NCBI GenBank assembly: GCA_964543035.1
Contig: CAZIVL010000001.1
Location: forward strand, 45,714 to 109,713
Length of the DNA: 64,000 nucleotides
DNA from: an uncultured Gammaproteobacteria bacterium
Lineage (GTDB): Bacteria; Patescibacteriota; Microgenomatia; CAZETR01; Amesbacteraceae
Direction: 5' to 3'
Shown in pieces: positions 2,322 to 63,556 of this stretch (position 1 is the stretch's first letter; the number at the start of each line of letters is the position of its first letter). A model generated the notes under the pieces. The model was not told where the DNA came from, searched no databases, and worked only from the letters and a program-made list of their open reading frames with translations. The translations under genes and the position numbers were made by a program.

Positions 2322-3500
2322 TTAAGCGATGACTTTAGTCACCACTCCCGCGCCGACGGTTTTTCCGCCTTCGCGAATTGCAAATCTCAAACCTTCTTCG
2401 ATAGCAACCGGTACAATCAGTTTCACCTTGATGCTGGCATTGTCTCCTGGCATGACCATTTCAGTTCCAGCAGCCAGTGTGACCTCGCCGGTTACGTCAG
2501 TTGTTCGGATATAGAATTGTGGTCTATATCCTGAGAAGAATGAAGTGTGGCGTCCCCCCTCTTCCTTCTTAAGGACATAGATATTAGCTTCAAATTCAGT
2601 GTGAGGAGTAATAGATCCAGCCTTAGCCAGTACTTGTCCACGTTCAACTGCTTCTTTTTCTACGCCGCGAAGCAAAAGCCCAACGTTGTCTCCAGCTTGT
2701 CCCTCTTCTAATTGTTTTCTAAACATCTCGACTCCAGTTACCACGGTTGAGGAAGTAGCTTTGATACCCACAATTTCAATAGGATCGTTGATCTTCACGA
2801 TTCCGCGCTCAATTCGGCCTGTGACCACAGTTCCACGACCCTTGATCGAGAAGACGTCTTCGACAGGCATCAAAAATGGCTTGTCTAGCTCGCGGACTGG
2901 TGTGGGGATATATTCGTCCACTTTAGCCATGAGCTCGAGAATCTTTTCTTCGTACTTAGCATCACCTTCAGCCGCTTTTAGAGCAGATCCACGGACGATC
3001 GGTACATCGTTTCCGGGATATCCATACTTGGTCAGCAGTTCGCGCACTTCCATCTCGACGAGGTCCAAGAGAGAGTCGTCGTCTACCATGTCACACTTGT
3101 TGAGGAAGACTACGATTGCTGGCACATTGACCTGCTTGGCCAAAAGGATGTGTTCGCGAGTTTGAGGCATCGGTCCGTCTGCCGCGGATACGACCAGGAT
3201 CGCTCCGTCCATTTGAGCAGCTCCGGTAATCATATTCTTGATGTAGTCGGCGTGGCCTGGAGCATCGATGTGTGCATAGTGTCTCTTTTCTGTCTCATAC
3301 TCTTGGTGAGAAAGATTGATGGTTACTCCTCGTGCCTTTTCTTCTGGAGCAGAATCAATGTCTTCGTATTTCTTAGCAACAGCCCAACCCTTTTTGGAAA
3401 GAACGGTAGTAATAGCGGAAGTCAAAGTGGTCTTACCATGGTCGACGTGACCAATAGTACCAATGTTGACGTGAGGTTTACTGCGGACAAATGTTGCCAT
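2322..3500 (-). CDS. tuf: Elongation factor Tu
   Basis: 392-aa ORF with [22 protein letters not shown] GTPase motifs and full-length EF-Tu similarity. Confidence 0.95.
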
Positions 3501-3511
3501 ATGTAAAAGGA

Positions 3512-3540
3512 ATTCTATCTGAGGCTAAATACTTTTGCAA
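3512..3540 (-). promoter_or_regulatory. Candidate sigma70-type promoter for tuf (TTGCAA-N17-TAGAAT on minus strand) embedded in the 3' end of the upstream LTD gene
   Basis: Minus-strand reading: TTGCAAaagtatttagcctcagaTAGAATtccttttacatATG; only 14 nt separate the LTD stop from the tuf start. Confidence 0.35.
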
Positions 3541-4369
3541 GGGGGAAGTTGCGACATTTTTTATATACGTGTCTCATGACAAACTTCATTAGCTCGGATT
3601 TTTTATATTTTTTGTACTCACCTAGCACTTGTGGAATCGGGATTGCAGTTGGAGTGATGGTTGGGATTGGCGCCGTAGTCGGGGCAATTGTTGGTGTTGG
3701 TGTCTGTGTCGGAATTGGAGTTTCTGTAGGAGATGGGCTTGGTGTCAGAGTAGGCTCCAAAGTGGGTGTTGGTGTGACAGTCGGTGTCGCCGTAGGCGTC
3801 ATAGTTGGGACTGGAGTAGTTGCGACAAACAAACTATTCTGTGGGTCAGGTATATCTCGCAACGAAAAATCCACCGAGTTGTCATCGGTATCATCTTCTA
3901 CAGGGAGTCTCTCAATACTTTTGCCAGCAGCGGGTGCAGCCACAGCAGTTCCCTCAAATGTCGTAGCCGTCCCCATACCCACCAGATCTTCAGTAGAGTA
4001 GCTGCTCGTGCCGGTTTTTTTCTGTAGAGATATGAAACTGTTTGCAGTGATAGAGCTGCTACTCGCAGAATATACAAAGTCGGGTGTAACTGGAATAGTC
4101 GCATAGGCAGGATTGCCAATCAGCAGATAGCCCTGTGCTTTTATAACTCCAGTCATCGACGCTACCAGGTTAGTGCTCGCTCCCACTCGCAGCCTCCACC
4201 CAGTCAGGTCCACATCAGACAAAGTTGGGTTATATAGCTCTACAAACTCGTCCGACGCAACCCCTCCCCCTACCTGAATTTCTGAAATGACTACATGGTT
4301 TGTTGCTGCCCTCGCAACCCCCGGAAGCAAAAGAAGCACTATAAGAAAAACGGGCAATATTTTTCTCAC
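3515..4369 (-). CDS. Secreted lamin-tail-domain (LTD) protein with Pro/Thr-rich linker
   Basis: N-terminal signal peptide ([21 protein letters not shown]); LTD-like segment [12 protein letters not shown]…EFVELYNPT…DLTGWRL; long PT-rich low-complexity tail. Confidence 0.6.
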
Positions 4370-4429
4370 TAAGATTTATGCTAACCCCTTTTTTCAATTG
4401 TCGTCAACAACTAAAACCTAAAAACGTAA

Positions 4430-4804
4430 TTATTTATCCTTCCACTCGTCAAACACACCGACACACCTATTTTCTATACATCTAGGAGAAGTTGCAAGGC
4501 AGAGGACAGAGCAAGTTGGTCCGCCAAAGCTTTTACAGTTATCTCCAATCTCGGACAAATATTTATCTTTGAAATTTTTATTTATATATGTTCCACAATT
4601 GCACTCATCGCAAGTATTAGCTCGCACTCGCACACACTCCGAGTCGCTGTTGCAGCTTTTATATCCTTCATACTGATCAGGAAGAACAAAATCGTAAATC
4701 TTATCTTGAATCACATCTTTTCTCTGAGATCTCAAGATTATGGCTCCTAGTCCCACTCCTAGAATCAAAAGAACGGCAACCAAAACGGATACTGTTTTCC
4801 CCAC
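4430..4804 (-). CDS. Small Cys-rich membrane-anchored protein (hypothetical)
   Basis: 124-aa ORF, one N-terminal TM helix, 10 Cys in the ectodomain; no family recognised. Confidence 0.45.
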   Translation of the reverse strand: MGKTVSVLVAVLLILGVGLGAIILRSQRKDVIQDKIYDFVLPDQYEGYKSCNSDSECVRVRANTCDECNCGTYINKNFKDKYLSEIGDNCKSFGGPTCSVLCLATSPRCIENRCVGVFDEWKDK

Positions 4805-4833
4805 AAATTATTTATAGCCCAAAAATCCCTAAC

Positions 4834-5085
4834 TTACCAAGCAATGATTACTCGAGATGGGTCCTCGGTACTAGTTTCAAATTTTTCGCCCGCTCCTCCT
4901 ACTCCCACATAACTCGCTCCCGCACCTGGAATGTTCAACCAAACAGCAGTTCCCGGTTCTAGATTATCAGTCAAAAAATCTGCAGCACCCTTATAGCCAC
5001 GGGCTGCGATACGAGGATCATCAACTGGCAAGTCAACAGTGACTTTTCCAACCACTTTTAACTGATGAATTGTTTCACCGTTCAT
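4834..5085 (-). CDS. Hypothetical 84-aa protein
   Basis: ORF 4834..5124 trimmed to MNGETIHQL… to avoid overlap with fusA; tight spacing within the fusA–tuf transcription unit. Confidence 0.4.
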   Translation of the reverse strand: MNGETIHQLKVVGKVTVDLPVDDPRIAARGYKGAADFLTDNLEPGTAVWLNIPGAGASYVGVGGAGEKFETSTEDPSRVIIAW

Positions 5086-5089
5086 ATTT

Positions 5090-7234
5090 CTATGCAGCAG
5101 CCTGCACTTTTCCACTCTTTGCAATTATCCCCTCAGCAATGTTTCTAGGCACTTCGTCATAGTGAGATGGTTCCATATAGTAGGAGGCGCGGCCTTGGGA
5201 CAGTGAGCGCAGCTTGGTGGCATAACCAGACAGTTCAGCCAGAGGCACATGAGCATTGATGATAGTCAGATGTCCGCGCTTATCTGTGCCTTGAATAGCA
5301 GCTCTCTTAGATGATAGATCTCCAATCACGTCTCCCATAAATTCGTCTGGAGTGGAGACCTCCACTTTCATGACTGGTTCTAGGATGGTAGGTTCTGCGA
5401 TCTTGGCCGTGTGTTGGAAAGCCATGGATCCGGCGATCTTAAAGGCCATTTCTGAAGAGTCCACATCGTGGTAGGTTCCGTCAAAGAGGGTGATCTTGGT
5501 GTCAACGGTTGGGAATCCGGCCAAGACTCCGTTTTCCATGGCTTCCACGATTCCTTTTTCGATAGGAGCAATAAACTCTCCTGGAATAGCTCCACCTTTG
5601 ATTGCGTTTACAAACTCAAATCCTGCTCCGCGAGGTAGGGGCTCCATCTTGATCCAACAATGTCCATACTGTCCGCGACCTCCAGATTGGCGAATAAATT
5701 TACCCTCTCCTTCGGCGGCCTTTTTCACAGTTTCCTTGTAGGCCACTTGTGGAGCGCCGGTGGACGCTTCCACGTTAAACTCTCGCTTCATGCGGTCCAC
5801 CAGGATCTCCAGATGCAGCTCACCCATTCCAGAGATGATTGTCTGCCCTGTCTCGTGATTGGACTTGATGCGGAAAGTCGGATCTTCGTCAGACAGTTTG
5901 TTTAGAGCCAGACCCATCTTTTCTTGATCGGACTTTGTTTTTGGCTCAATAGCCAGTGAGATGACGGGTTCCGGGAAAGAGATTGACTCGAGTACAATTG
6001 GTGCCGCTTTTTCACACAGGGTGTTTCCGGTAGTTGTTTCACGCAGTCCCACGAGCGCCACGATCTCTCCCGCATAAGCAGCGTCGATCTCTTCGCGTTT
6101 GTTGGCGTGCATGAGAAGCATTCGGGAGATTCTTTCTTCTTTTTGTTTCGAGGCGTTCCACAGAGATTGTCCAGCCTTGAGTGATCCCGAGTATATTCGG
6201 ACATATGTCAGTCGTCCTACGTGGGGATCAGTCTGGATCTTGAAAGCCAGTCCAGCAAATTTTTCTTCATTGATAGTCTTGCGGCTTACTTCTTCTCCGG
6301 TTTGAGGATTAGTGCCACGGACATGATCCACATCGACTGGCGATGGCAGATATTCGACTACCGCGTCCAGCATTGGTTGCACACCTTTGTTGCGAAGTGA
6401 TGCTCCTGCATATACCGGGACAAGCTTGTAGGCAATCACGGCTCTTCGCATAGCCGCTTTCAGCTCAGCAACAGTGGGCTCTTCGCCGGCTAGGAATTTG
6501 TTCAAGAGGTCATCGTCAGTCTCAGAGATTTGCTCGATTAGTTTGGTTCGCCACTTTTCTACCGTATCTTTCAGGTCTTCGGGAATTGGTTGTTCTTCGT
6601 ATTTAGCACCAGTTTCATCACCCAGCCAGACCAAGGCTTTTCTCTCGAGTAGTAACACCACTCCTCTAAAAGTATTTTCAGCCCCGATCGGGTAAGCCAT
6701 GACAGCGGGGTTTGCTCCCAGTCTATCAATGATGGCTTTGATCGTGCCTTCAAAATTGGCTCCGAGCTTGTCGTTCTTATTGATAAATATAATTCGTGGT
6801 ACTTTGTATTTGTCGGCCTGTCTCCACACTGTTTCAGTCTGTGACTGCACTGTTTCTTCTGCGTCGAGTACCGTGACGGCTCCGTCCAAGACGCGTAGTG
6901 AGCGCTCGACTTCGGCCGTAAAGTCCACGTGTCCGGGAGTGTCGATCAGGTTGATGCGATATGAGCCGTGTTCTACTGGGCTGTTTACATCAGATACTGA
7001 CCAGAAGGTGGTTGTGGCCGCAGATACGATTGTGATTCCGCGCTCTTTTTCCTGAGCCATCCAGTCCATTTGCGTGTCACCTTCGTCGATGTCTCCGATC
7101 TTGTAGGATTTGCCAGTATAAAAAAGAATTCGTTCCGAAGTAGTCGTCTTTCCAGCGTCAATGTGCGCGATTATTCCAATATTACGCACCCGATCTTGCG
7201 GGACAATTCGATTTGTTGTTTTAATATCTGCCAT
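5090..7234 (-). CDS. fusA: Elongation factor G
   Basis: 714-aa ORF; AHIDAGKTT, DTPGHVDF, NKMD motifs; full EF-G domain order. Confidence 0.95.
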   Translation of the reverse strand: MADIKTTNRIVPQDRVRNIGIIAHIDAGKTTTSERILFYTGKSYKIGDIDEGDTQMDWMAQEKERGITIVSAATTTFWSVSDVNSPVEHGSYRINLIDTPGHVDFTAEVERSLRVLDGAVTVLDAEETVQSQTETVWRQADKYKVPRIIFINKNDKLGANFEGTIKAIIDRLGANPAVMAYPIGAENTFRGVVLLLERKALVWLGDETGAKYEEQPIPEDLKDTVEKWRTKLIEQISETDDDLLNKFLAGEEPTVAELKAAMRRAVIAYKLVPVYAGASLRNKGVQPMLDAVVEYLPSPVDVDHVRGTNPQTGEEVSRKTINEEKFAGLAFKIQTDPHVGRLTYVRIYSGSLKAGQSLWNASKQKEERISRMLLMHANKREEIDAAYAGEIVALVGLRETTTGNTLCEKAAPIVLESISFPEPVISLAIEPKTKSDQEKMGLALNKLSDEDPTFRIKSNHETGQTIISGMGELHLEILVDRMKREFNVEASTGAPQVAYKETVKKAAEGEGKFIRQSGGRGQYGHCWIKMEPLPRGAGFEFVNAIKGGAIPGEFIAPIEKGIVEAMENGVLAGFPTVDTKITLFDGTYHDVDSSEMAFKIAGSMAFQHTAKIAEPTILEPVMKVEVSTPDEFMGDVIGDLSSKRAAIQGTDKRGHLTIINAHVPLAELSGYATKLRSLSQGRASYYMEPSHYDEVPRNIAEGIIAKSGKVQAAA

Positions 7235-7258
7235 AGTGAGAAACTTCAGTTTCGAGAT

Positions 7259-7307
7259 ATATGAAAGGATCCATGAGCGTCAGCGAATGGTAGGTTTCCT
7301 TTCATAT
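7259..7307. repeat. Perfect 11-bp inverted repeat (ATATGAAAGGA / TCCTTTCATAT) around GGATCCATGAGCGTCAGCGAA; rearranged variant of the GTCATCCTGA/GGATCCAG repeat family
   Basis: Seen directly in the fusA–dnaJ divergent spacer; core TGAGCGTCAGCGAA resembles the family core TGAGCGAAGCGAA. Confidence 0.5.
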
Positions 7308-23915: not shown

Positions 23916-26093
23916 ATGCCCAGAAGTAGGTCTATTTTTGGCCGGCGTAAATTCCAGGTCAAGCTCAAACAATCCACAGTCAATTCTATTGGCGCCTCTA
24001 TCCTCTTCGCCATTTCTGGCCTCATCTGGCTCTCATTTATTCGCCAGGGCACTCTCCTTATTAGTCTCAACGATTTTCTGGTCACCAATCTCGGTTTTAT
24101 TCCCACGCTTTATTTCCCCCTCATTCCCATCTTTGGGGGACTGATGATTACCAAGATCAAGACTTCTCTTTCTTCTGCCAATGTTTTTGTGGGTAGTATT
24201 TTGACCCTCGCTGCCCTCATCGGTCTTTTTCACGATGGCTTTGTGGGTGCCCAAGTCTGGCAAAATCTCACCACTCTTATCTATTACCCCGGCGCCTTTT
24301 TGTTCTTGGTCGCCACTCTTGGCATTGGTCTCATTATTTCTTTCAACATTCCTTTTGAGGACGTTGTAAATTTTGTTTTGGATCTTCTTCGCAAGCTGTT
24401 TGGCATCTTTAGTCGGTTCAAAGGTCCAGACCTGGCCAATACTCCCTTAAATCGCCCCATCAAATTGGGTGGCCTTACGGGCAAACCTGCCGTTGTTCCC
24501 GCCAAACAAGCCTCGCTCTTTTCCAGTAAGCCAGTGGAGATCAAGGGCATGGGCACCAAGCCCGTTAACCAATCACCAATCACCAATAACCAAAAACCAA
24601 TAACCCCTCTCCCAGCCGCCGCCACCGACACTGTCTGGCATTATCCACCTCTTACTTTGTTGTCCGAAAATATTTCTGGTAAGGCCGACCGGGGAAATAT
24701 AAACAACAATGCCGCCATCATCGAAAAGACTCTCGAGGCTTTTGGCATTACGGCCAAAGTCATCGAGGTAAACATGGGTCCCGCCGTCACCCAATATGCC
24801 CTCGAAGTCGCCATCGGTACTAAGCTCTCCAAGATTTCGGCCTTAGGGTCTGACTTGGCTTTGGCCCTCGCCGCTCCCACGGGACAGATTCGCATCGAAG
24901 CCCCGATTCCCGGAAGGTCTCTGGTGGGTATCGAGTTACCTAACCGTTCTCCCGAGTTTGTCAGCCTGCGAAAGATCCTGGAGTCGGATAATGCCAAAAA
25001 TCACAAGTCCAAGCTGGCAGTTGCCATGGGTCTGGACGTCTCCGGCGAGCCTATTGTCGCCGATATCGCCAAGATGCCCCACGTTTTGATAGCAGGGAGC
25101 ACCGGTTCCGGAAAATCAGTCGCCATCAACTCATTTATCGCCTCTCTGCTCTTCAGAGCCAGTCCTCAGGAGGTCAATCTCATTATGGTGGATCCCAAGC
25201 GTGTGGAGCTGACGGGTTACAATGGCATTCCTCATCTTTTGAGTCCTGTGATCGTCGAGCCCGAAAAAGTCTTGTCCGCTCTCAAGTGGGCCACCGGCGA
25301 GATGGAACGCCGCTACAAGCTCTTTGCCGAGGTGGGAGTCAGAAATCTCGAGGGTTACAACGAGCTCTCCGGCTTCCAGGCCCTTCCTTACATAGTTATC
25401 GTGATAGACGAGCTCGCCGATATCATGTTGTTTGCCCAAGTTGAGGTAGAAGACACTATTACTCGTATCGCCCAGATGGCCCGAGCCACCGGTATTCACC
25501 TCGTGTTGGCCACTCAGCGCCCGTCTGTGGATATCATCACGGGTCTTATAAAGGCAAACATCCCGACTCGCATCGCCTTCTCAGTCTCTTCCATGATCGA
25601 TTCAAAAGTGGTCTTGGATCAGCCCGGAGCCGAGAAATTGTTGGGCAAAGGGGACATGCTTTATATTCCCCCAGATGCTGCCAAGCCTACTCGCATCCAG
25701 GGTTCATTTGTGTCAGACAAGGAGATCAAGAGCCTGATCGAGTTTTTGAAAAAGCAGGGTGTGGCTCCGCATTACACTGAAGAAGTGACCAATACTCCGA
25801 TCGGAAAGATTGGTGGTCGTGGCGGCCGGGGTAGCAGCTTCATCGCTCCCAATGGTGAGGACCGGGATGAATTGTTTGAGGATGCCCTCAGGCTCATCGT
25901 CCAGCACAACACCGCATCTGCTTCTTTCTTACAAAGAAAGCTCAGTATTGGTTACGCCCGTGCGGCTCGAGTCCTCGATGAGCTCTACGGAGCCGGCGCC
26001 ATTGGTCCAGCCGACGGGGCCAAGCCCCGCGACATCATGGTCTCCGACGTAACCTCATTCCTCAATCCAGCGCCTCAAGAACAGTCATCCTGA
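23916..26093 (+). CDS. ftsK: DNA translocase FtsK/SpoIIIE
   Basis: N-terminal TM helices; Walker A GSTGSGKS; winged-helix gamma domain at C-terminus. Confidence 0.9.
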   Translation: MPRSRSIFGRRKFQVKLKQSTVNSIGASILFAISGLIWLSFIRQGTLLISLNDFLVTNLGFIPTLYFPLIPIFGGLMITKIKTSLSSANVFVGSILTLAALIGLFHDGFVGAQVWQNLTTLIYYPGAFLFLVATLGIGLIISFNIPFEDVVNFVLDLLRKLFGIFSRFKGPDLANTPLNRPIKLGGLTGKPAVVPAKQASLFSSKPVEIKGMGTKPVNQSPITNNQKPITPLPAAATDTVWHYPPLTLLSENISGKADRGNINNNAAIIEKTLEAFGITAKVIEVNMGPAVTQYALEVAIGTKLSKISALGSDLALALAAPTGQIRIEAPIPGRSLVGIELPNRSPEFVSLRKILESDNAKNHKSKLAVAMGLDVSGEPIVADIAKMPHVLIAGSTGSGKSVAINSFIASLLFRASPQEVNLIMVDPKRVELTGYNGIPHLLSPVIVEPEKVLSALKWATGEMERRYKLFAEVGVRNLEGYNELSGFQALPYIVIVIDELADIMLFAQVEVEDTITRIAQMARATGIHLVLATQRPSVDIITGLIKANIPTRIAFSVSSMIDSKVVLDQPGAEKLLGKGDMLYIPPDAAKPTRIQGSFVSDKEIKSLIEFLKKQGVAPHYTEEVTNTPIGKIGGRGGRGSSFIAPNGEDRDELFEDALRLIVQHNTASASFLQRKLSIGYARAARVLDELYGAGAIGPADGAKPRDIMVSDVTSFLNPAPQEQSS
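24571..24605 (+). repeat. Heptamer tandem array AATCACC x2-AATAACC-AAAAACC-AATAACC inside the ftsK linker
   Basis: Seen directly; encodes NQSPITNNQKPIT. Confidence 0.85.
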
Positions 26094-26182: not shown

Positions 26183-26824
26183 ATGAAAACCGCCGGCCAA
26201 ATGTTACAAGAGACTCGTCTTGCCAAAAGACTGGATTACTCAGACGTAGCCAGGATTACCAAGATCAGGCCGCAGTTTTTGGAGATTATTGAGAATGACA
26301 ATTACAAACAGCTCCCCAGTGGCGCCGTAGCCAAGGGCTTCATCAGAAACTACGCCGAATTTTTAGGCTTGAAGCCCGATTACATTTCCGCCATATTCAG
26401 AAGAGATTTTGTGGAAAACGAGCGGGGAGAGATCATTCCTCGCGGTATGGCGAGTCCCATAAATAAGATTAGTATCTGGACTCCAAAGACGACCGTGATT
26501 GCAGGCGTCATAGCTCTCTTTTTGTCCCTGGGCGTTTATTTGATTTATCAGTTCAATGTTTTGGTCGGCCCTCCTAGTCTAAAGCTTTCCGAGCCCCAAG
26601 AGTCACAGGTCGTAGACACTGAGACCATAGTCGTCTCAGGGACTACCGATCCCGAGGCCACCATTAGAGTAAACGATCAGCCCATAGCCCTCGACAAGGG
26701 TGGTTCATTTTTTGTCCGCCTGCCCCTCGTTTCCGGGGAAAACAAGATTGTAGTAGTGGCCACCAGCAAATCAAAAAAATCAACGACCCTTGAGCGTGTC
26801 GTTACCTTGACATCCCGGCCGTAA
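26183..26824 (+). CDS. RodZ-like membrane protein (N-terminal XRE-type HTH, single TM)
   Basis: HTH segment …DYSDVARITKIRPQFLEIIEND…; TM; periplasmic C-terminus. Confidence 0.55.
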   Translation: MKTAGQMLQETRLAKRLDYSDVARITKIRPQFLEIIENDNYKQLPSGAVAKGFIRNYAEFLGLKPDYISAIFRRDFVENERGEIIPRGMASPINKISIWTPKTTVIAGVIALFLSLGVYLIYQFNVLVGPPSLKLSEPQESQVVDTETIVVSGTTDPEATIRVNDQPIALDKGGSFFVRLPLVSGENKIVVVATSKSKKSTTLERVVTLTSRP

Positions 26825-26846: not shown

Positions 26847-27191
26847 ATGTTAACGACGCTAGTTCAGCTTCTTCTCGTCTCAGTCATCTGCACACTCACC
26901 GTGCTCACAGTCGTAGCGGGCATTCAGGTCTTTCACATACTGCATGAGTTTCGCCAGATTCTCAAGAGGATGAATCTCATTTTGGACAATACCAGGACTA
27001 TTTCTGACTCCGCAGCCAAGCCCATTAGTGCCGTCAACGAATTTTTCTCCGAAGTAAAGGGATTGGTCAATGAAACCCAGGATCAGATCGTCGACTCCAC
27101 CCCCGACCGTGTCATCACGCAGGCTGCATCCCAGCCATCCGCTGCCCGTCGCTTCTTCCACCGCGCCGGCCTGTCTCTGCGCGCCTCTTAG
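26847..27191 (+). CDS. Hypothetical membrane-anchored protein
   Basis: 114 aa, N-terminal TM. Confidence 0.35.
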   Translation: MLTTLVQLLLVSVICTLTVLTVVAGIQVFHILHEFRQILKRMNLILDNTRTISDSAAKPISAVNEFFSEVKGLVNETQDQIVDSTPDRVITQAASQPSAARRFFHRAGLSLRAS

Positions 27192-27222: not shown

Positions 27223-29028
27223 ATGATTTCCGGCTCTGATGTTAGGAAAAAATATCTCGATTTTTTTGCAGTTCGCGGCCATGTCGTCATTCCTTCAGCG
27301 CCATTAGTTCCCGAAAACGACCCCACCACACTTTTTACCGGCTCCGGCATGCAGCCCATGTTGCAGTATTTACTAGGGGCTCCATATCCCGAGGGCAAGA
27401 CCAGGATTGTCGATTCCCAAAAATGTTTCAGATCCCAAGACATCGAAGAAGTGGGGGACAATCGTCACACCACTTCGTTTGAGATGTTGGGCAACTGGTC
27501 ACTTGGAGACTACTTCAAAAAAGAGCAGTTGACTTGGATGTGGGAGTTTTTTACACAAGAATTAGGTTTGGACAAAAACCACATTTTTGTCTCCGTTTTC
27601 GAAGGCGACACCGAGATTCCCAGAGATGATGAAGCAGTCGAGATTTGGAAAAGTTTGGGGGTCCCGGAAGAAAGAATTTTTTACTACAGCGACAAAAAAA
27701 ATTGGTGGAGCAGATCAGGTCCTAAGGCAAATATGCCAGTGGGTGAGCCCGGAGGCCCAGATTCCGAAATCTTTTACGACTTCGGAGAAGAGCATCAGTT
27801 TCATGAAAATTCCCAGTGGAAAAATGAAGAGTGTCATCCCAATTGTGATTGCGGTCGATTTATAGAAATTGGCAACAACGTGTTTATGACCTATGTAAAA
27901 ACAGATTCGGGATTTGAACCATTAAAGAAGAAAAATATCGATTACGGCGGGGGACTGGAGCGCATTGCTGCAGCCGTCCACGGCGTCCCCGATATTTTTG
28001 TGACCAGTCTTTACAAAAAGATTATTGCCGAGGTAGAAGAAATGTCAGGAAAATCATACGCCGATAACACAACGGCGTTCAGAATCATCGCCGATCATCT
28101 CAAAGCCTCAGTGTTTCTCATTGCCGACGGCGTTACTCCGTCAAACAAATCTCAAGGATATTTCTTGCGTAGACTCCTGCGAAGGAGTCTGGTGAAGTTG
28201 CAACAGCTTGGTATCTCCACTACCGATTTTACACCAATAATAAAAGCAATTATTGATACTTATTCAGACACCGACTATTTCAAAAATTCCCAAGTTACAG
28301 TTATTAGTTCAGAGATTTCGTCAGAAGCCGAAAAATTTGCCAAGACTTTAAAAGATGGGTTAAAAAGAATTGGTGATACCACACCTTTTGATCTCTTCCA
28401 GACCTATGGCTTCCCGCCCGAAGTCACCGAGGAATTACTCAAGCAAGAAGGCAAGTCTTTGGACTGGGACGAGTTCAACAAAGAAAAATCCCAGCATCAG
28501 GATTTGTCCCGTACTGCTGGAAAAGGCATGTTCAAAGGCGGGCTTCAGGATCAGTCGGAGATCACGACTCGCTATCACACTGCCACACATTTATTACATG
28601 CCTCACTGCGAAAGATATTGGGAGATCACGTCCAGCAAAAGGGTTCCAACATTACGGCCGATCGGTTACGTTTTGATTTTTCCCACGACTCCAAATTAAC
28701 TAATTCACAAATTCACGAGATTGAAGACCTGGTAAATCAACAGATTATTAAGGATCTTCCTGTCACTAAAGTAGAAATGCGCAAAACGGACGCACTCGCC
28801 CAAGGCGCTCTCGCCTTTTTCCCCGAAAAATATCCCGATGTTACCAATGTTTATTCTATTGGCGACCCTTCGACAGGCTCAGGGCAAGTTTTTTCAAAAG
28901 AGCTTTGTGGTGGTCCGCACGTGAATTCGACTGGTATTATTGGTAAGATAAAAATAACCCGTGAAGAATCCGCGGGTGCTGGCATCCGCCGCATATATGC
29001 AACTGCCCTTCCTCAAAAAGAAAACTGA
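27223..29028 (+). CDS. alaS: Alanine--tRNA ligase (compact, lacks C-Ala domain)
   Basis: Class II AlaRS catalytic core; editing-domain HxxxH (TATHLLH) and CGGPHV; only 601 aa. Confidence 0.9.
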   Translation: MISGSDVRKKYLDFFAVRGHVVIPSAPLVPENDPTTLFTGSGMQPMLQYLLGAPYPEGKTRIVDSQKCFRSQDIEEVGDNRHTTSFEMLGNWSLGDYFKKEQLTWMWEFFTQELGLDKNHIFVSVFEGDTEIPRDDEAVEIWKSLGVPEERIFYYSDKKNWWSRSGPKANMPVGEPGGPDSEIFYDFGEEHQFHENSQWKNEECHPNCDCGRFIEIGNNVFMTYVKTDSGFEPLKKKNIDYGGGLERIAAAVHGVPDIFVTSLYKKIIAEVEEMSGKSYADNTTAFRIIADHLKASVFLIADGVTPSNKSQGYFLRRLLRRSLVKLQQLGISTTDFTPIIKAIIDTYSDTDYFKNSQVTVISSEISSEAEKFAKTLKDGLKRIGDTTPFDLFQTYGFPPEVTEELLKQEGKSLDWDEFNKEKSQHQDLSRTAGKGMFKGGLQDQSEITTRYHTATHLLHASLRKILGDHVQQKGSNITADRLRFDFSHDSKLTNSQIHEIEDLVNQQIIKDLPVTKVEMRKTDALAQGALAFFPEKYPDVTNVYSIGDPSTGSGQVFSKELCGGPHVNSTGIIGKIKITREESAGAGIRRIYATALPQKEN

Positions 29029-31072
29029 AACAAAACGCGAGTATTTATTCGCGCTTGAGGTCAGTCACTCCGTCGTAAAAAGTGCTATCTGGACCGTAGC
29101 CAACAATCATCCTCAAGCAGTTTCAGTCAGCAGCTGTTTTTCTTGGGATGATGCCTCAGACGACAGTCTCATAGAAGCAGCCGACCAAGCTCTTACCGAG
29201 AGTAGCTTGCATCTCGATCATGCCGGCAAGATTCAGCCCGAAAAAGTGATTTTCGGCCTCCCCTCGGACTGGATTACTTCAGAAGAAAAGATTGTTCCCG
29301 AAAAGCTGCCAATTCTAAAAAAGCTTACCACCAAGCTGTCGCTCACGGCTATCGGTTTTGTTGTTACCCAAGAAGCCATTGTCCGTTTTATTCATAGCCA
29401 AGAAGGCGTCCCCACGACTGCTATTTTAGTCGGTGTCCGCCCTCATATTATTGAGCTGTCTCTCGTCAAGCTGGGCAAGATTCTCGGAACTCACATCATC
29501 AAGCGCGGGCAGGATATTGCCGAAGACGTCATCGAAGGACTATCTCGTTTTCCTCACCAGGATATGTTGCCGTCCCGCATTCTGCTTTACGACTCATCCC
29601 TGGATCTAAATGAAATAAAACAGCAATTACTTTCCCATCAGTGGCTCTCACATCATACTAAGTTGCCCTTTTTACACTTTCCCAAAGTAGAGATCTTGCC
29701 AGAAGATCATACTGTAAAAGCCATCGCTCTCTCAGGTGGCTCCGAAGTCGCAGTTTCACTAGGTCTTATGTCAGAGCCAGCGACGATCGAACCTGAAGCC
29801 CCTCCAGTGATTCCTGAAGTATCCGCCCCAGATGACAACTTAGGTTTTATCGAACACGAGGTCCAAGAAGAGGAGGTGCCAGAGGTAGTAAAATCACGTC
29901 TGACTATGCCCCAGATTTCTCTGCCCAAGTTTTCTGCCTCTCCCATTATCATCATTGTGGTTCTTCTCATTTTGGTGATCGGCTCTTCAGCTGCTTTGTG
30001 GTTCTTGCCGAGGGCTACAGTGGATCTGACTATTGAACCCAAAAAGACCGAGGTCAGTTTTGATCTTGTAGTGGACCCCAAAGGAAACGCCACCAGCTCC
30101 GGCTCTCCTATTATCTTGGGCAAACTCATGGAGACCCTGGCCTCTTCCCAAAAGACTACTGACGCCACCGGCTCAAAATTAGTCGGTGACCGCGCCAAGG
30201 GAGAAGTAACTATGATAAACGGCACGACTGCGACCCGGTCTTTCCCAGCCGGGACCGTCATCATTTCTCCAAGTGGGCTGAAGTTTACTCTCGACGCCGC
30301 AGTTTCTGTTGCATCGGCCTCAGGGACCGCTGATCCAAATTCATATCAGCCCGGCAAATCCAATGTAAAAGTGACCGCAGAAGCCATCGGCACCGACTCA
30401 AATATTTCCGCCGGCACCTCATTTAGAGTCGGCACTTTTTCCACCCTAGATTATGTGGCAAAAAATGACGCCGCTTTTGGGGGCGGCAGCAGTAGGCAAG
30501 CCAAGGCCATTTCAAAAACCGATATCGAGAGTCTGAGGTCTTCTCTTTCCGATTCCCTAAAGACTCAAGCCCAAGAGGATCTTGAAGCCAAGATTGATGA
30601 TGACAACAAAATAATTTTGGAGACTATTGTCTTAACGACTACTTCCGAAAAGTTCAATCACAAAGAAGGCGATATCGCAGACAATGTCACCCTCGAGCTG
30701 TCAGTGAAGGCTTCAGCCGTCAGCATTGCCAAAGCGGATCTCGATGCCGTGGTGGAAGAACAATTGGGTCCCAAGATTCCCGAAGGCTTTACTCCCACAG
30801 ATTCCGTCACTCCCCATTTTGTTTTCAAGTCCACCAAAGATGGCCTAACCAGTCTTACAACCACTGTGGAAGCAGAGCTCATTCCTGTATATGACCAGGT
30901 GCAAATCGCAAAAAATATCGTAGGCAAAAGGCCAGCCACGGCCCAGGAATATCTTTTGAGCCTGCCCCAAGTCAGAGACGTCCAGATGTCATACTTCCCG
31001 CCAGCTCCCGGGTTTCTCGTTACGCTTCCTCACGTGGCCAAAAATATTAAGCTAAATCTGGTCTCTCCCTAA
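28997..31072 (+). CDS. Actin-fold (FtsA/PilM-like) cytoplasmic domain - single TM - large extracytoplasmic domain fusion protein
   Basis: N-terminal ~330 aa align in pattern to FtsA/PilM (YLFALEV…, …TAILVGVRPHIIELSLV…) but nucleotide-binding glycine motifs are degenerate; TM at ~aa 320-345; start overlaps alaS 3' end. Confidence 0.5.
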   Translation: MQLPFLKKKTETKREYLFALEVSHSVVKSAIWTVANNHPQAVSVSSCFSWDDASDDSLIEAADQALTESSLHLDHAGKIQPEKVIFGLPSDWITSEEKIVPEKLPILKKLTTKLSLTAIGFVVTQEAIVRFIHSQEGVPTTAILVGVRPHIIELSLVKLGKILGTHIIKRGQDIAEDVIEGLSRFPHQDMLPSRILLYDSSLDLNEIKQQLLSHQWLSHHTKLPFLHFPKVEILPEDHTVKAIALSGGSEVAVSLGLMSEPATIEPEAPPVIPEVSAPDDNLGFIEHEVQEEEVPEVVKSRLTMPQISLPKFSASPIIIIVVLLILVIGSSAALWFLPRATVDLTIEPKKTEVSFDLVVDPKGNATSSGSPIILGKLMETLASSQKTTDATGSKLVGDRAKGEVTMINGTTATRSFPAGTVIISPSGLKFTLDAAVSVASASGTADPNSYQPGKSNVKVTAEAIGTDSNISAGTSFRVGTFSTLDYVAKNDAAFGGGSSRQAKAISKTDIESLRSSLSDSLKTQAQEDLEAKIDDDNKIILETIVLTTTSEKFNHKEGDIADNVTLELSVKASAVSIAKADLDAVVEEQLGPKIPEGFTPTDSVTPHFVFKSTKDGLTSLTTTVEAELIPVYDQVQIAKNIVGKRPATAQEYLLSLPQVRDVQMSYFPPAPGFLVTLPHVAKNIKLNLVSP

Positions 31073-31747
31073 ATGGCAAAAAAATGGGCCTTGGGTTTTA
31101 TCTTCTTGGGTAGTGTGGTTTTAGGCAGTGTCACTTTTCCGATATTGGCTTCCTGGGTCAGCTTTCAGATAGATCGTATGACCGCCCTCGTCGATCCATC
31201 GGCCACCTCGCATTTGATTACCACCCGTGAGCCAGTGTTCATAAATGTCTTGGGTTTTGCCACCACCGATTATTCTCTGCCGGCCAATTGGTTTCCCAGT
31301 GTCCAGTATGGTTCTCAGACTACTTCTACTCAAGTCAAATTTTTTTCCCTATCCATCCCCGACCTAGATATGTTTGACGTAGCAGTTGAAGTAAATGGCA
31401 ACGATCTCAAAAAAAACGCCATTCACTATCCCGGCACTTCACTCCCAGGCACTTATGGCAACTCAGTTATTTTCGGCCACTCGGCTCTGCCCCAGTTTTA
31501 CAAGTCAGGCAATCCTCTGACGATTTTCAATCCTTTGGTAAAAGCCCAGGTGGGACAAAGAGTAGTCGTCAGTTTTGACGGCGCCGTCTACACATATATG
31601 ATAAAAAAGATTCAGGAAGTGACTCCTGACAAAGTCGAGGTTTTGGGCCAGGCCTTCGACCGCCATACCTTGACTCTCATCACTTGTACTCCCCTTGGTA
31701 CTTACTGGCACCGCCTAGTGGTCACCGCCGAGCTGCTAGACGAATAG
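31073..31747 (+). CDS. Sortase-family cysteine transpeptidase
   Basis: N-terminal TM; His motif IFGHSA; catalytic TLITC; C-terminal Arg. Confidence 0.75.
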   Translation: MAKKWALGFIFLGSVVLGSVTFPILASWVSFQIDRMTALVDPSATSHLITTREPVFINVLGFATTDYSLPANWFPSVQYGSQTTSTQVKFFSLSIPDLDMFDVAVEVNGNDLKKNAIHYPGTSLPGTYGNSVIFGHSALPQFYKSGNPLTIFNPLVKAQVGQRVVVSFDGAVYTYMIKKIQEVTPDKVEVLGQAFDRHTLTLITCTPLGTYWHRLVVTAELLDE

Positions 31748-32013: not shown

Positions 32014-32367
32014 ATGAACATTCTTGGACTTGACTACGGTGCAAAATATATTGGTGTGGCCCTCGCCACGAGTCCCTTAGCAGAGCCACTGACGACAATT
32101 CCCACAGACCGATTTTTTGCCGAACTACCGGCCCTTATTGAGAAGCATCAGGTCACCCACATAATAATAGGTGATCAAACTCCACAGGAATTCATCGCCC
32201 AACTAAAAACTAATAACCAAGAACTAATAACCATTGACGAGACACTTTCATCTCACGACGCCCGCCAGTCTCTTCTGCACACCACCCAGACTAGAAGAAA
32301 AGAAAACGAGCACTCAGTCGCCGCCGCCATCATCCTCCAATCCTGGCTTGACTCCACCACTAAATGA
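32014..32367 (+). CDS. YqgF/RuvX-like putative pre-16S rRNA nuclease (Holliday-junction-resolvase fold)
   Basis: MNILGLDYGAKYIGVA… and …ITIDETLSSHDA motifs; contains the heptamer array at 32203-32237 (KTNNQELIT). Confidence 0.8.
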   Translation: MNILGLDYGAKYIGVALATSPLAEPLTTIPTDRFFAELPALIEKHQVTHIIIGDQTPQEFIAQLKTNNQELITIDETLSSHDARQSLLHTTQTRRKENEHSVAAAIILQSWLDSTTK

Positions 32368-32702
32368 TCGATAATACGGCCATGTCAGGTATCGAAACAA
32401 AAATCCAAGCTCGAAATGCAGACTCAGAGCTCTTGGGACAAGAATTTAAATGTACCGGTAATCCTGAAGTAGGAATTGAAGTCGTCGGATTAATGATATA
32501 CTTCACAACCTTCGATGGTGAAGGAAGAATGGTCGACGATAGGTCATGGAATCCACTTGCCGGTTGTACTTATCGAGGGGCGACAGGAGAATGTCTAAAA
32601 GGGGGCGGTTATTGCAGGGTAGCTGGGGCAGCCCCTCTTGCTGAGTATCACAGAAGAGTAAGTCAACTGAAAAAACTCGATAAATTTGACCCTTCCAGAT
32701 AA
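32364..32702 (+). CDS. Hypothetical protein
   Basis: 112-aa ORF, overlaps the yqgF stop. Confidence 0.3.
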   Translation: MIDNTAMSGIETKIQARNADSELLGQEFKCTGNPEVGIEVVGLMIYFTTFDGEGRMVDDRSWNPLAGCTYRGATGECLKGGGYCRVAGAAPLAEYHRRVSQLKKLDKFDPSR

Positions 32703-32750: not shown

Positions 32751-32945
32751 ATGTTCAAGAATGTCATTTCTCCGGTCCAGGCTTGGCTTCTTTCCCAAGG
32801 TCGTTGTGTAGGCTGCGGCACCGATCTAGGTACAGCCAAGACGGAATCCCACAAATCCGGAGAAAAAGTCACTTGTGAGAAATGTGGTCGCATCTTCATC
32901 AAGACTTCCGGAAAATACCGCCGCGCTCTCTTTGAGGAAATATAG
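32751..32945 (+). CDS. Zn-ribbon small protein (hypothetical)
   Basis: 64 aa; CVGCGT…CEKCG. Confidence 0.3.
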   Translation: MFKNVISPVQAWLLSQGRCVGCGTDLGTAKTESHKSGEKVTCEKCGRIFIKTSGKYRRALFEEI

Positions 32946-33922
32946 TGAAAAAAGCTTTTCTTCTGTTTTTTGCTCTCTCTATCGTTTCATTTGCTTTTGG
33001 ATTAGGTGGCTATCTTCTGTGGGACTTTTATACAAAAGCCCCCACTCCGGGCTCAGATAGCAAGATCAGCTTCACGATTACCAAAAACCAATCTGCAGCC
33101 CAGACTATTGAGAATCTCAAGTCCCAGCAGCTGATCAAATCCGATCTAGCAGCCAAACTTTATTTGCGAGCCACTGGATTGGACCAAAAAATCAAGCCAG
33201 GAGCGTACCTCGTTTCTCCTGGTCTTTCGCTATCAGAGATAGTAGGAGTCCTCATAGATGGCCCCCAGGATATATGGGTGACGATCCCCGAGGGTTGGCG
33301 AAGAGAGCAGGTAGCCTCGCGCCTAAGAGAGACCATTGTAGGCTTTGATATCCAAGAGTTTTTGGCCAAGACGGTCCCTCTCGAGGGCCAGCTTTTCCCC
33401 GATACTTATCTGATTCCCACCGAAGCCACGGTGGACACTGTCTTGGCCATCTTCCAAAAAAACTTTGTCAAAAAATCTGGCCTCACTCTACCCCGCGACC
33501 GGGACATCCTGATTATCGCCTCCATGATTGAGCGTGAAGCCCGTGAGGGGACTGATAGGCCAAAAGTGGCTTCCGTCATCTACAACCGCCTGGAGATCGG
33601 TATGCCCCTTCAGATCGACGCTACTGTCCAGTACGCCCGGGACTCCGCAAAAGACTGTGCAACTGGTCAACTGAGAAACTGTGAATATTGGGAACCAATT
33701 TTTGATACAAAATTCCCATCTCTCTATAACACGTACCTAAAAAACGGCCTTCCTCCCGGACCCATTGCCAGTCCCGGCCTAGCCTCGATTCAGGCTGCCC
33801 TCGTGCCTGACCAGACCGACTTTCTCTACTATCTGACCGGAAACGACGGTGTGACGTATTTTGCAAAAACCCTGTCCGAGCACAACGCAAACGTCCAAAA
33901 GTACTTGCTTGACAAGCCATGA
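32945..33922 (+). CDS. mltG: Endolytic murein transglycosylase MltG/YceG
   Basis: N-terminal TM, YceG-like domain (…LQIDATVQYAR…YNTYLKNGLPPGPIASPG…). Confidence 0.8.
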   Translation: MKKAFLLFFALSIVSFAFGLGGYLLWDFYTKAPTPGSDSKISFTITKNQSAAQTIENLKSQQLIKSDLAAKLYLRATGLDQKIKPGAYLVSPGLSLSEIVGVLIDGPQDIWVTIPEGWRREQVASRLRETIVGFDIQEFLAKTVPLEGQLFPDTYLIPTEATVDTVLAIFQKNFVKKSGLTLPRDRDILIIASMIEREAREGTDRPKVASVIYNRLEIGMPLQIDATVQYARDSAKDCATGQLRNCEYWEPIFDTKFPSLYNTYLKNGLPPGPIASPGLASIQAALVPDQTDFLYYLTGNDGVTYFAKTLSEHNANVQKYLLDKP

Positions 33923-63293: not shown

Positions 63294-63556
63294 GCCTGGA
63301 GATGGGCGACTACGCCGTCTTTTGACGGTGAGGAAAGTCCAGACAGCAGAAAGCAGGGTGTCCAGCATAAGCTGGAGCGGGTAACCGCCAGTTAGAGCAA
63401 CAGTGACGAACCGAGGTAAAGCTCGGGTGAAACGGGCAATCCTCCCCGCTGCAATCTCCGAATTGGCCGTTTGAGGTAGCTTTCCCAAGGCCTAAAGCAT
63501 GAGAGCATCAGAAAGATTGTCGCTGACAACAGAATCTGGCTTACTATTCTCCAGGC
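63294..63556 (+). ncRNA. rnpB: RNase P RNA (bacterial type A, compact ~263 nt)
   Basis: P4 strands GAGGAAAGUCC…GCAGGGUG and ACAGAAUCUGGCUUA; GGGUGAAAC and GGUAGC…GGCCUAAAGCAUGAG regions align to E. coli M1 RNA; P1 pairing GCCUGGAGA/UCUCCAGGC; TATAAT 5 nt upstream. Confidence 0.8.

Follow-up and report, generated by a model that had tools for sequence, protein, structure and literature searches.

A Microgenomatia membrane protein with a degenerate FtsA-like actin fold inside the cell and a phage baseplate-like domain outside

What kind of protein carries an actin-like fold on one side of a membrane helix and a large domain on the other, and what might it do next to a sortase gene? The locus that raises this question lies in a window of 64,000 nucleotides (the whole stretch of DNA analysed, to which all coordinates refer) from contig CAZIVL010000001.1, positions 45,714 to 109,713 of the forward strand, of assembly GCA_964543035.1, placed by GTDB in the Amesbacteraceae of the class Microgenomatia. 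An initial annotation of window positions 28997-31747, made from the sequence alone, had proposed that an FtsA/PilM-like actin-fold domain is fused through a transmembrane (TM) helix to an extracytoplasmic domain, and that the protein and the neighbouring sortase might belong to a surface-assembly or division apparatus specific to this lineage. We find that the gene at 28997-31072 encodes a real, conserved membrane protein of Microgenomatia whose cytoplasmic part is a degenerate, FtsA-like actin fold and whose outer part is baseplate-like, and profile alignments indicate that it arose by fusion of two genes that stand side by side in other bacteria of the candidate phyla radiation (CPR). The gene and the parts of its product are as follows.

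28997-31072, + strand: the fusion gene, a single uninterrupted open reading frame (ORF) of 691 aa
28997-29776, + strand: cytoplasmic actin-fold domain of the ASKHA (acetate and sugar kinases/Hsc70/actin) superfamily, aa 1-260, from AlphaFold2 (AF2), Foldseek and hhalign
28997-29020, + strand: N-terminal peptide M-x-L-P-F-F/L-K-K, with M1, L3, P4 and F5 at least 90% conserved in 47 sequences
29777-29932, + strand: variable, Pro/Glu-rich cytoplasmic linker, aa 261-312, from alignment and composition
29837-29848, + strand: (D/N)-L-G-F motif in the linker, aa 281-284, invariant in the family alignment
29933-30001, + strand: single TM helix, aa ~313-335, the sole hydrophobic peak, conserved in position across the family
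30002-31072, + strand: baseplate-J/gp47-like extracytoplasmic module, aa 336-691 (356 aa) plus stop codon, from AF2, Foldseek and profiles
30170-30511, + strand: beta-barrel of the ectodomain, aa ~392-505, from the AF2 model

An in-frame GTG at 28961 is a possible earlier start of the ORF (28961/28997-31072), and we set the length at 691 aa because the alignments with homologues all begin at the ATG at 28997, with the residues M-x-L-P-F. The 3′ end of alaS overlaps this start by 32 nt. Exactly one segment is strongly hydrophobic (aa ~313-335, Kyte-Doolittle 2.9), in agreement with the single helix between two domains described in the initial annotation. As the domain N-terminal to this helix has the fold of a cytoplasmic ATPase, we infer that the N terminus faces inwards and the C terminus outwards. 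In the linker, G283 and F284 are invariant and the columns around them are highly variable and gapped; over the N-terminal peptide the AF2 confidence is low (predicted local distance difference test (pLDDT) score 52). Both conserved elements, MxLPFFKK and DLGF, lie outside the folded domain and are candidate short linear docking peptides.

The identity of the N-terminal domain (N-domain) could not be read from direct comparisons. Searches of Pfam, NCBIfam and PDB sequences with the whole protein or with an N-domain profile returned no match for this domain, and the protein matched neither the FtsA models (TIGR01174/PF14450) nor the PilM_2 and TIGR01175 models. An AF2 model built from 23 family members (pLDDT 90.7, predicted TM-score (pTM) 0.86) was assigned by DSSP two beta-beta-beta-alpha-beta-alpha-beta-alpha halves, each RNase-H-like, which is the hallmark of ASKHA proteins. 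Foldseek returned 730 PDB matches at E ≤ 1e-3, and the top 50 were all ASKHA proteins, led by Pseudomonas aeruginosa PilM (5eq6, E 7e-10, TM-score 0.54) and continuing with BT_3980, EutJ, PPX/GppA, FtsA and sugar kinases. The model contains only subdomains 1A and 2A, a minimal core that lacks 1C and 2B, and the ATP motifs of the domain are degenerate: ALE-I-x is found for ALDIGT, LGFWPxxLE for DxGGGTTD and LLYDSG for LLCGGGA. The earlier description of the N-terminal third as FtsA/PilM-like with degenerate phosphate loops thus agrees with the model, the structural matches and the motif alignment. A lack of actin-fold similarity in profile searches had been named as a sign that would speak against that description; direct sequence and profile searches were indeed blank, but AF2 and Foldseek show the fold clearly. 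Because the direct searches were blind to it, the nature of this domain was revealed only by structure prediction and by the unfused homologues described below.

When the two halves were submitted to Foldseek separately, as the initial annotation had advised, the N-terminal half led to the actin fold and the C-terminal half to baseplate wedge proteins. The AF2 model of the ectodomain (pLDDT 88, pTM 0.55) consists of membrane-proximal beta strands, the beta-barrel, a long helix and two alpha/beta subdomains. Its PDB matches at a probability of 1.0 are wedge chains of phi812, XM1, A-1(L), the diffocin TRI-2 and Mu gp47; the related GlxA barrel was matched as well, and in BFVD the top matches were Baseplate J-like proteins. 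Profile searches point weakly the same way: PHROG 6, 'baseplate wedge subunit', matched the ectodomain at E 1.6e-5, a PDB profile search found the diffocin TRI-2, and the Pfam family PF04865 (Baseplate_J) scored 15.2 bits (E 0.013), below its cut-off of 21.1, on this protein, with a precomputed match present on many orthologues. No conserved residues of a catalytic type were found in the ectodomain, where invariance is seen mostly at Gly, Asn and Pro. It had been described as large and Ser/Thr/Gly-rich; the size holds (356 aa), but the enrichment is mild (27% against 20% in the N-domain), and the region is instead a multi-domain module of the baseplate-J/gp47 kind. On the basis of these models and profiles, the ectodomain resembles the phage baseplate wedge protein J/gp47. 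With that group, which includes T4 gp6 and TssF (PF04865, PHROG 6), it appears to share the barrel domain and, by 3Di alignment over ~335 columns, the overall domain order; it differs in that a membrane anchor joins it to a cytoplasmic domain and its gene lies among housekeeping genes, with no other components of a phage tail or contractile injection system (CIS).

The origin of this combination is indicated by relatives that lack the actin domain. A word-index search with the ectodomain profile gave few matches, yet it was the source of distant relatives of 546-634 aa, recorded as 'hypothetical' or 'baseplate J/gp47 family protein', the named ones coming from Nomurabacteria, Chromulinivoraceae and Saccharimonadales. 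These unfused baseplate-J-like (BPJ) proteins are bitopic and carry, before the TM helix, an invariant cytoplasmic head of ~95 aa with the consensus KDxIYIDxxDDIT...VALVPPKR...LQSxVNLRLL (for example aa 1-95 of protein P0279, or 7001-7285 in locus L082), for which no Pfam or PDB match was found. Immediately upstream of the BPJ gene, across a gap of ~5 bp, lies a separate gene for an FtsA-like protein of 415-421 aa, for which the head is presumably the docking site. The FtsA-like partner has a mean column identity of 81%, keeps the canonical ALDIGT, DxGGGTTD and LLCGGGA motifs, and matches the ftsA model TIGR01174 at E 1.2e-33 (116.7 bits, below the cut-off of 175.85) and Vibrio FtsA in the PDB at E 4.9e-15, against only 2e-13 for the pilM model. 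From its sequence it is apparently a full-size, competent ATPase. Among 80 further metagenomic loci, the order AlaRS, FtsA-like, BPJ, RuvX, MltG, (LysM-CHAP) was kept in all 78 that were informative, that is, on contigs long enough. The two-gene arrangement is that of Saccharimonadia-like and Nomurabacteria-like CPR. The suggestion of an apparatus specific to one lineage therefore did not hold, since other CPR classes have both modules as adjacent genes at the same alaS/ruvX-mltG position. A protein of 634 aa, P0280 from a high-GC JGI contig (3300041967), is Ala/Arg/Pro-rich, shares with the BPJ proteins the succession of head, TM helix and Baseplate_J region, and is encoded directly before RuvX-YceG. 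The module may thus not be restricted to the typical low-GC lineages of CPR.

Alignments of each half with its unfused counterpart support a fusion. The fused N-domain aligned by hhalign with the FtsA-like family over 224 columns (probability 92%, E 5.9e-7), with two clean deletions of ~95 aa and ~55 aa that correspond to 1C-like and 2B-like regions. When the FtsA-like partner was used as a tblastn query, the best match fell within this N-domain, with E 0.005 for the window and values as low as 3e-6 for other loci. The fused ectodomain aligned with unfused BPJ proteins over 355 columns, from the TM helix to the C terminus (probability 99.96%, E 4.5e-39). Because each half aligns to one partner at the same chromosomal place, the Microgenomatia protein is, as far as sequence comparison can tell, a fusion of the conserved CPR gene pair. 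It differs from the pair in that the latter consists of two polypeptides, a full-size FtsA-like protein and a BPJ protein with its own head, normally with no sortase alongside. During the fusion the FtsA-like part would have replaced the cytoplasmic head of the membrane partner, and the actin domain would have decayed to a nucleotide-free ASKHA core through loss of 1C, 2B and the ATP motifs. We hold this structural and evolutionary part of the explanation, taken alone, with high confidence. Such a natural fusion is 'Rosetta-stone' evidence that the FtsA-like and extracellular baseplate-like proteins work as one unit.

The fused form is confined to Microgenomatia, where it is conserved in both architecture and position. 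All 489 fusion homologues are full length. An N-domain profile retrieved 1,445 clusters at 50% identity (1,282 at E ≤ 1e-10), and among the 150 matches listed nearly all are 660-820 aa long and the actin domain is always N-terminal. Conservation of the fusion in related genomes had been set as a check, and we found the same architecture in 80 species-representative genomes of Ames-, Shapiro-, Davies-, Gottesman- and Chisholmbacteria. These genomes and locus L001 make up 81 fused loci, in which the order FtsK, RodZ-like, (114-aa TM protein), AlaRS, fusion protein, sortase, RuvX, MltG, RpoB is essentially fixed. In the window the neighbours are the following.

23916-26093, + strand: ftsK, part of the upstream block conserved in Microgenomatia
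26183-26824, + strand: RodZ-like gene (HTH_25, TM helix and Ig-like/Glucodextran_B ectodomain), conserved next to ftsK throughout Microgenomatia
26847-27191, + strand: gene for a 114-aa membrane protein, part of the same conserved upstream block
27223-29028, + strand: alaS, encoding a short AlaRS of 601 aa, syntenic in the 81 fused and ~78 unfused loci
31073-31747, + strand: gene for a membrane-anchored sortase of 224 aa (PF04203, E 7e-25; TLITC motif)
32014-32367, + strand: ruvX, a conserved downstream neighbour
32945-33922, + strand: mltG/yceG, a conserved downstream neighbour

What the fused protein does is a separate question, for which we favour the following answer as a whole at a probability of about 0.55: it is a bitopic, envelope-spanning scaffold of the wall-remodelling or division machinery, born by operon fusion. 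In phages the baseplate-J fold builds oligomeric wedges. By this account the baseplate-like ectodomain would assemble into an oligomeric platform on the external side of the membrane. This platform would place or control enzymes that remodel the wall, and would do the same for the translationally coupled sortase in most Microgenomatia. The protein would couple this platform to a cytoplasmic partner, either cytoskeletal or of the divisome, possibly through MxLPFFKK and DLGF. Because its subdomains and ATP motifs are lost, the fused actin domain would act in docking or oligomerization and not as an enzyme. The fusion fixes a 1:1 covalent link between the two modules and the ATPase motifs are gone from it, which argues that the essential cytoplasmic activity is binding or scaffolding. 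We read the protein as a wall or division scaffold because its neighbourhood is wall- and division-flavoured, with FtsK and RodZ-like genes upstream, MltG downstream, the sortase, and LysM-CHAP in unfused lineages.

Comparison with known systems places the protein near, but not within, the established division and shape proteins. With FtsA it shares the ASKHA fold, membrane association and a gene neighbourhood of wall and division genes, and profile-profile comparison shows its N-domain to be homologous to the FtsA-like paralogue of CPR, which in turn matches models and structures of FtsA. It differs from FtsA in its missing subdomains, its degenerate ATP motifs and the lack of a direct FtsA-model match, and it has a true TM helix and an ectodomain where FtsA has a C-terminal amphipathic helix. 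Profile scans of the 27 larger flanking ORFs of the window detected neither FtsZ nor FtsA, and a tblastn search of the window with the FtsA-like protein did not find them either. RodZ-MreB offers a conceptual parallel, in that a bitopic membrane protein links an actin-fold protein inside to the wall side, and a RodZ-like gene lies 2 kb upstream; there is no relationship of sequence or fold, and here the actin-fold module is covalently within the bitopic protein. The RodZ-like protein of the upstream block is a further candidate for a bitopic cytoskeleton linker.

Several observations weigh against a wall or division scaffold. The case for its function is drawn entirely from gene neighbourhood, and the arrangement alaS-ruvX-mltG is a widely conserved housekeeping one, so a position inside this cluster is weak functional evidence. 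The top structural matches of the N-domain are PilM and not FtsA. For the ectodomain, whole-chain TM-scores are low (~0.2, over alignments of ~335 columns), as expected of an elongated multi-domain chain, and only the barrel of ~110 residues superposes well, with root-mean-square deviations of 4-6 Å and 17-25% identity. Finally, locus L164 (5187-7641) has a BPJ gene near alaS with no FtsA-like gene and no RuvX/MltG downstream, so the pairing of FtsA-like and BPJ proteins is not absolutely universal. We considered whether a 269-aa gene upstream of the L164 BPJ gene might encode a reduced actin domain and rejected this, as it is a genuine cupin-type glucose-6-phosphate isomerase.

A first alternative is that the protein serves the sortase alone, as a membrane platform from which the near-universal Microgenomatia enzyme would receive its substrates, or by which it would be localized, for the anchoring of surface proteins or pili. 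The neighbouring gene is a sortase with a TLITC motif, as first described: it scores 64 bits with TIGR01076 (cut-off 39), and its His-Cys-Arg triad (H136, C205 and R214) is 97-100% conserved in 70 orthologues. It falls below the cut-off of every NCBIfam sortase class, the best being class C with 68 bits against 160. The TAA stop of the fusion gene (31070-31072) directly abuts the sortase ATG (31073; junction cccTAAATGgca), the sortase lies directly downstream of the fusion in 69 of the 79 informative Microgenomatia loci, and sortases are near-ubiquitous in Microgenomates (PMC6744442). The remaining ten loci keep the fusion with no sortase adjacent to it; alaS is inverted in all ten, which suggests one rearranged sub-clade. 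A sortase follows the unfused pair in none of 78 informative loci, and the flanks of ~6 kb around the pair in 80 metagenome loci showed no sortase-like sequence; only locus L083 among the unfused loci has a sortase near the pair, just upstream. Motif scans found no LPXTG-type or other sorting-signal substrate in the window, in agreement with the initial annotation, or in the 81 related loci, and the fusion protein itself has no C-terminal sorting signal. The sortase link is therefore lineage-specific and not intrinsic to the module, and a dedicated sortase partner seems to us unlikely. As possible sortase motifs we also considered a conserved 'LP-K/R-A-T' after the TM helix and a C-terminal 'LPH'; both were rejected because the orientation is wrong, no hydrophobic tail follows and LP-x-AT also occurs in relatives with no adjacent sortase. 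In L083, which is Nomurabacteria-like, the stretch directly upstream of the unfused pair (3171-5712) holds two camelysin/TasA-like (Peptidase_M73) genes and, after them, the gene for a 367-aa protein with a weak signal-peptidase S26 region and a sortase domain.

A second alternative, which we consider improbable, casts the protein as an alignment component of a type IV pilus (T4P) or a type II secretion system (T2SS)-like machine, an analogue of PilM-PilN or GspL in which the actin-like domain would bind an assembly ATPase or a platform protein and the ectodomain would contact pilus or wall. GspL has a nucleotide-free actin-like domain and corresponds to a PilM+PilN fusion, so its origin parallels that of the FtsA-like and BPJ fusion, and the layout of a cytoplasmic actin-like domain, one TM helix and an extracytoplasmic domain is common to all. 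The best Foldseek matches of the N-domain to P. aeruginosa PilM structures fit this idea, and so does the dependence of CPR bacteria on T4P (PMC6744442; PMC11623550). In a subset of the Saccharimonadia-like loci (L082 at 3051-3653, L084, L096-L100, L127 and L149), a type IV pilin-like gene, with weak N_methyl/T2SSG matches, lies just upstream of alaS. However, neither the window nor ~160 related loci contained a pilB, pilC, pilN, pilO or pilD gene, the context is not that of a T2SS either, FtsA models give the unfused partner much higher scores than PilM models do, and the ectodomain is baseplate-J-like and not the ferredoxin-like domain of PilN, PilO or GspL. The true PilM proteins of Saccharibacteria, in TM7x, are encoded inside self-contained T4P loci with PilN, PilO, PilB and PilC (PMC11623550). 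The likeness to GspL is thus one of design and not of membership, and the context favours the divisome or wall option over the pilus option.

That the locus is a relic of a prophage tail or of a CIS baseplate is suggested by the likeness between the ectodomain and Baseplate_J, PHROG 6 and gp47 and by the names of some database records. This idea is effectively refuted: only housekeeping genes surround the locus, genes for a sheath, a tube, a spike or further wedge proteins are missing, the gene keeps its place throughout a bacterial class, and its product has an actin-fold domain in the cytoplasm as well as a TM anchor. Searches for relatives in 2.9 M IMG/VR contigs and, at the level of BLAST similarity, by tblastn in 50,697 phage genomes (INPHARED) were negative. 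It follows that a 'baseplate J/gp47' annotation in CPR genomes is no evidence of a prophage. An assembly or sequencing error joining two genes near 29950-30000, which the initial annotation had raised against its own reading, is refuted outright, since hundreds of independent assemblies, with identities of 30-89%, show the identical full-length architecture, and a conserved TM helix lies at the supposed junction.

We return to the envelope-spanning scaffold as the preferred reading of the fusion protein. Extended to the Patescibacteria at large, it leads to a more tentative and rather doubtful proposal: these bacteria may possess an unrecognized core trans-envelope machine, in which a cytoplasmic filament or scaffold of an FtsA paralogue is mechanically coupled through a bitopic partner to an external, oligomeric baseplate-like platform that organizes septal or wall remodelling (MltG, LysM-CHAP, sortase), and which is hard-wired as one polypeptide in Microgenomatia. 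Both folds are already known, and the design of actin-like domain, TM helix and ectodomain has precedents in GspL and PilM-PilN; what is unusual is a phage-baseplate fold serving as a core cellular ectodomain, tied to an FtsA paralogue by a natural fusion. If the proposal is correct, this would be the first transmembrane protein to join an actin fold and a baseplate fold, and the wedge-protein fold would have to have passed between cells and tailed phages long ago. The literature searched, on CPR sortases and pili, CPR division and shape proteins (FtsA, FtsZ, FtsQ, MreB), baseplate J in Patescibacteria and Saccharibacteria, and Southlakia Tn-seq, contained no description of the family or of the gene pair. 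A CPR pilus system, 'Pam', has chaperone-usher-like components and is unrelated (bioRxiv 10.64898/2026.03.03.709456).

Much of bacterial diversity falls within the CPR/Patescibacteria, whose cell biology is almost unknown. With at least 1,282 fused clusters at 50% identity and, for the unfused membrane partner, no fewer than 4,095 clusters at 90% identity, the proteins described here define a very large, strongly conserved and unnamed family, and two 'hypothetical proteins' become a testable hypothesis on how the cytoplasm is coupled to wall remodelling or division in ultra-small bacteria. Saccharimonadia-like contigs commonly carry the unfused module, and to judge from these sequences orthologues should be present in cultivable Saccharibacteria, where genetics exist.

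Two further features of the window were recorded. Between ruvX and mltG, an ORF at 32364-32702 (+ strand) would encode a Cys-containing protein of 112 aa that matched no family and was not detected in the 81 loci; it may be lineage-specific or non-coding. At 63294-63556 (+ strand) lies an RNase P RNA of ~263 nt whose best and full-length match is to the archaeal model RF00373 (98 bits, E 4e-26) and not to a bacterial one. Such a result is uncommon in bacteria, and a reduced RNase P RNA of the CPR type may lie behind it.

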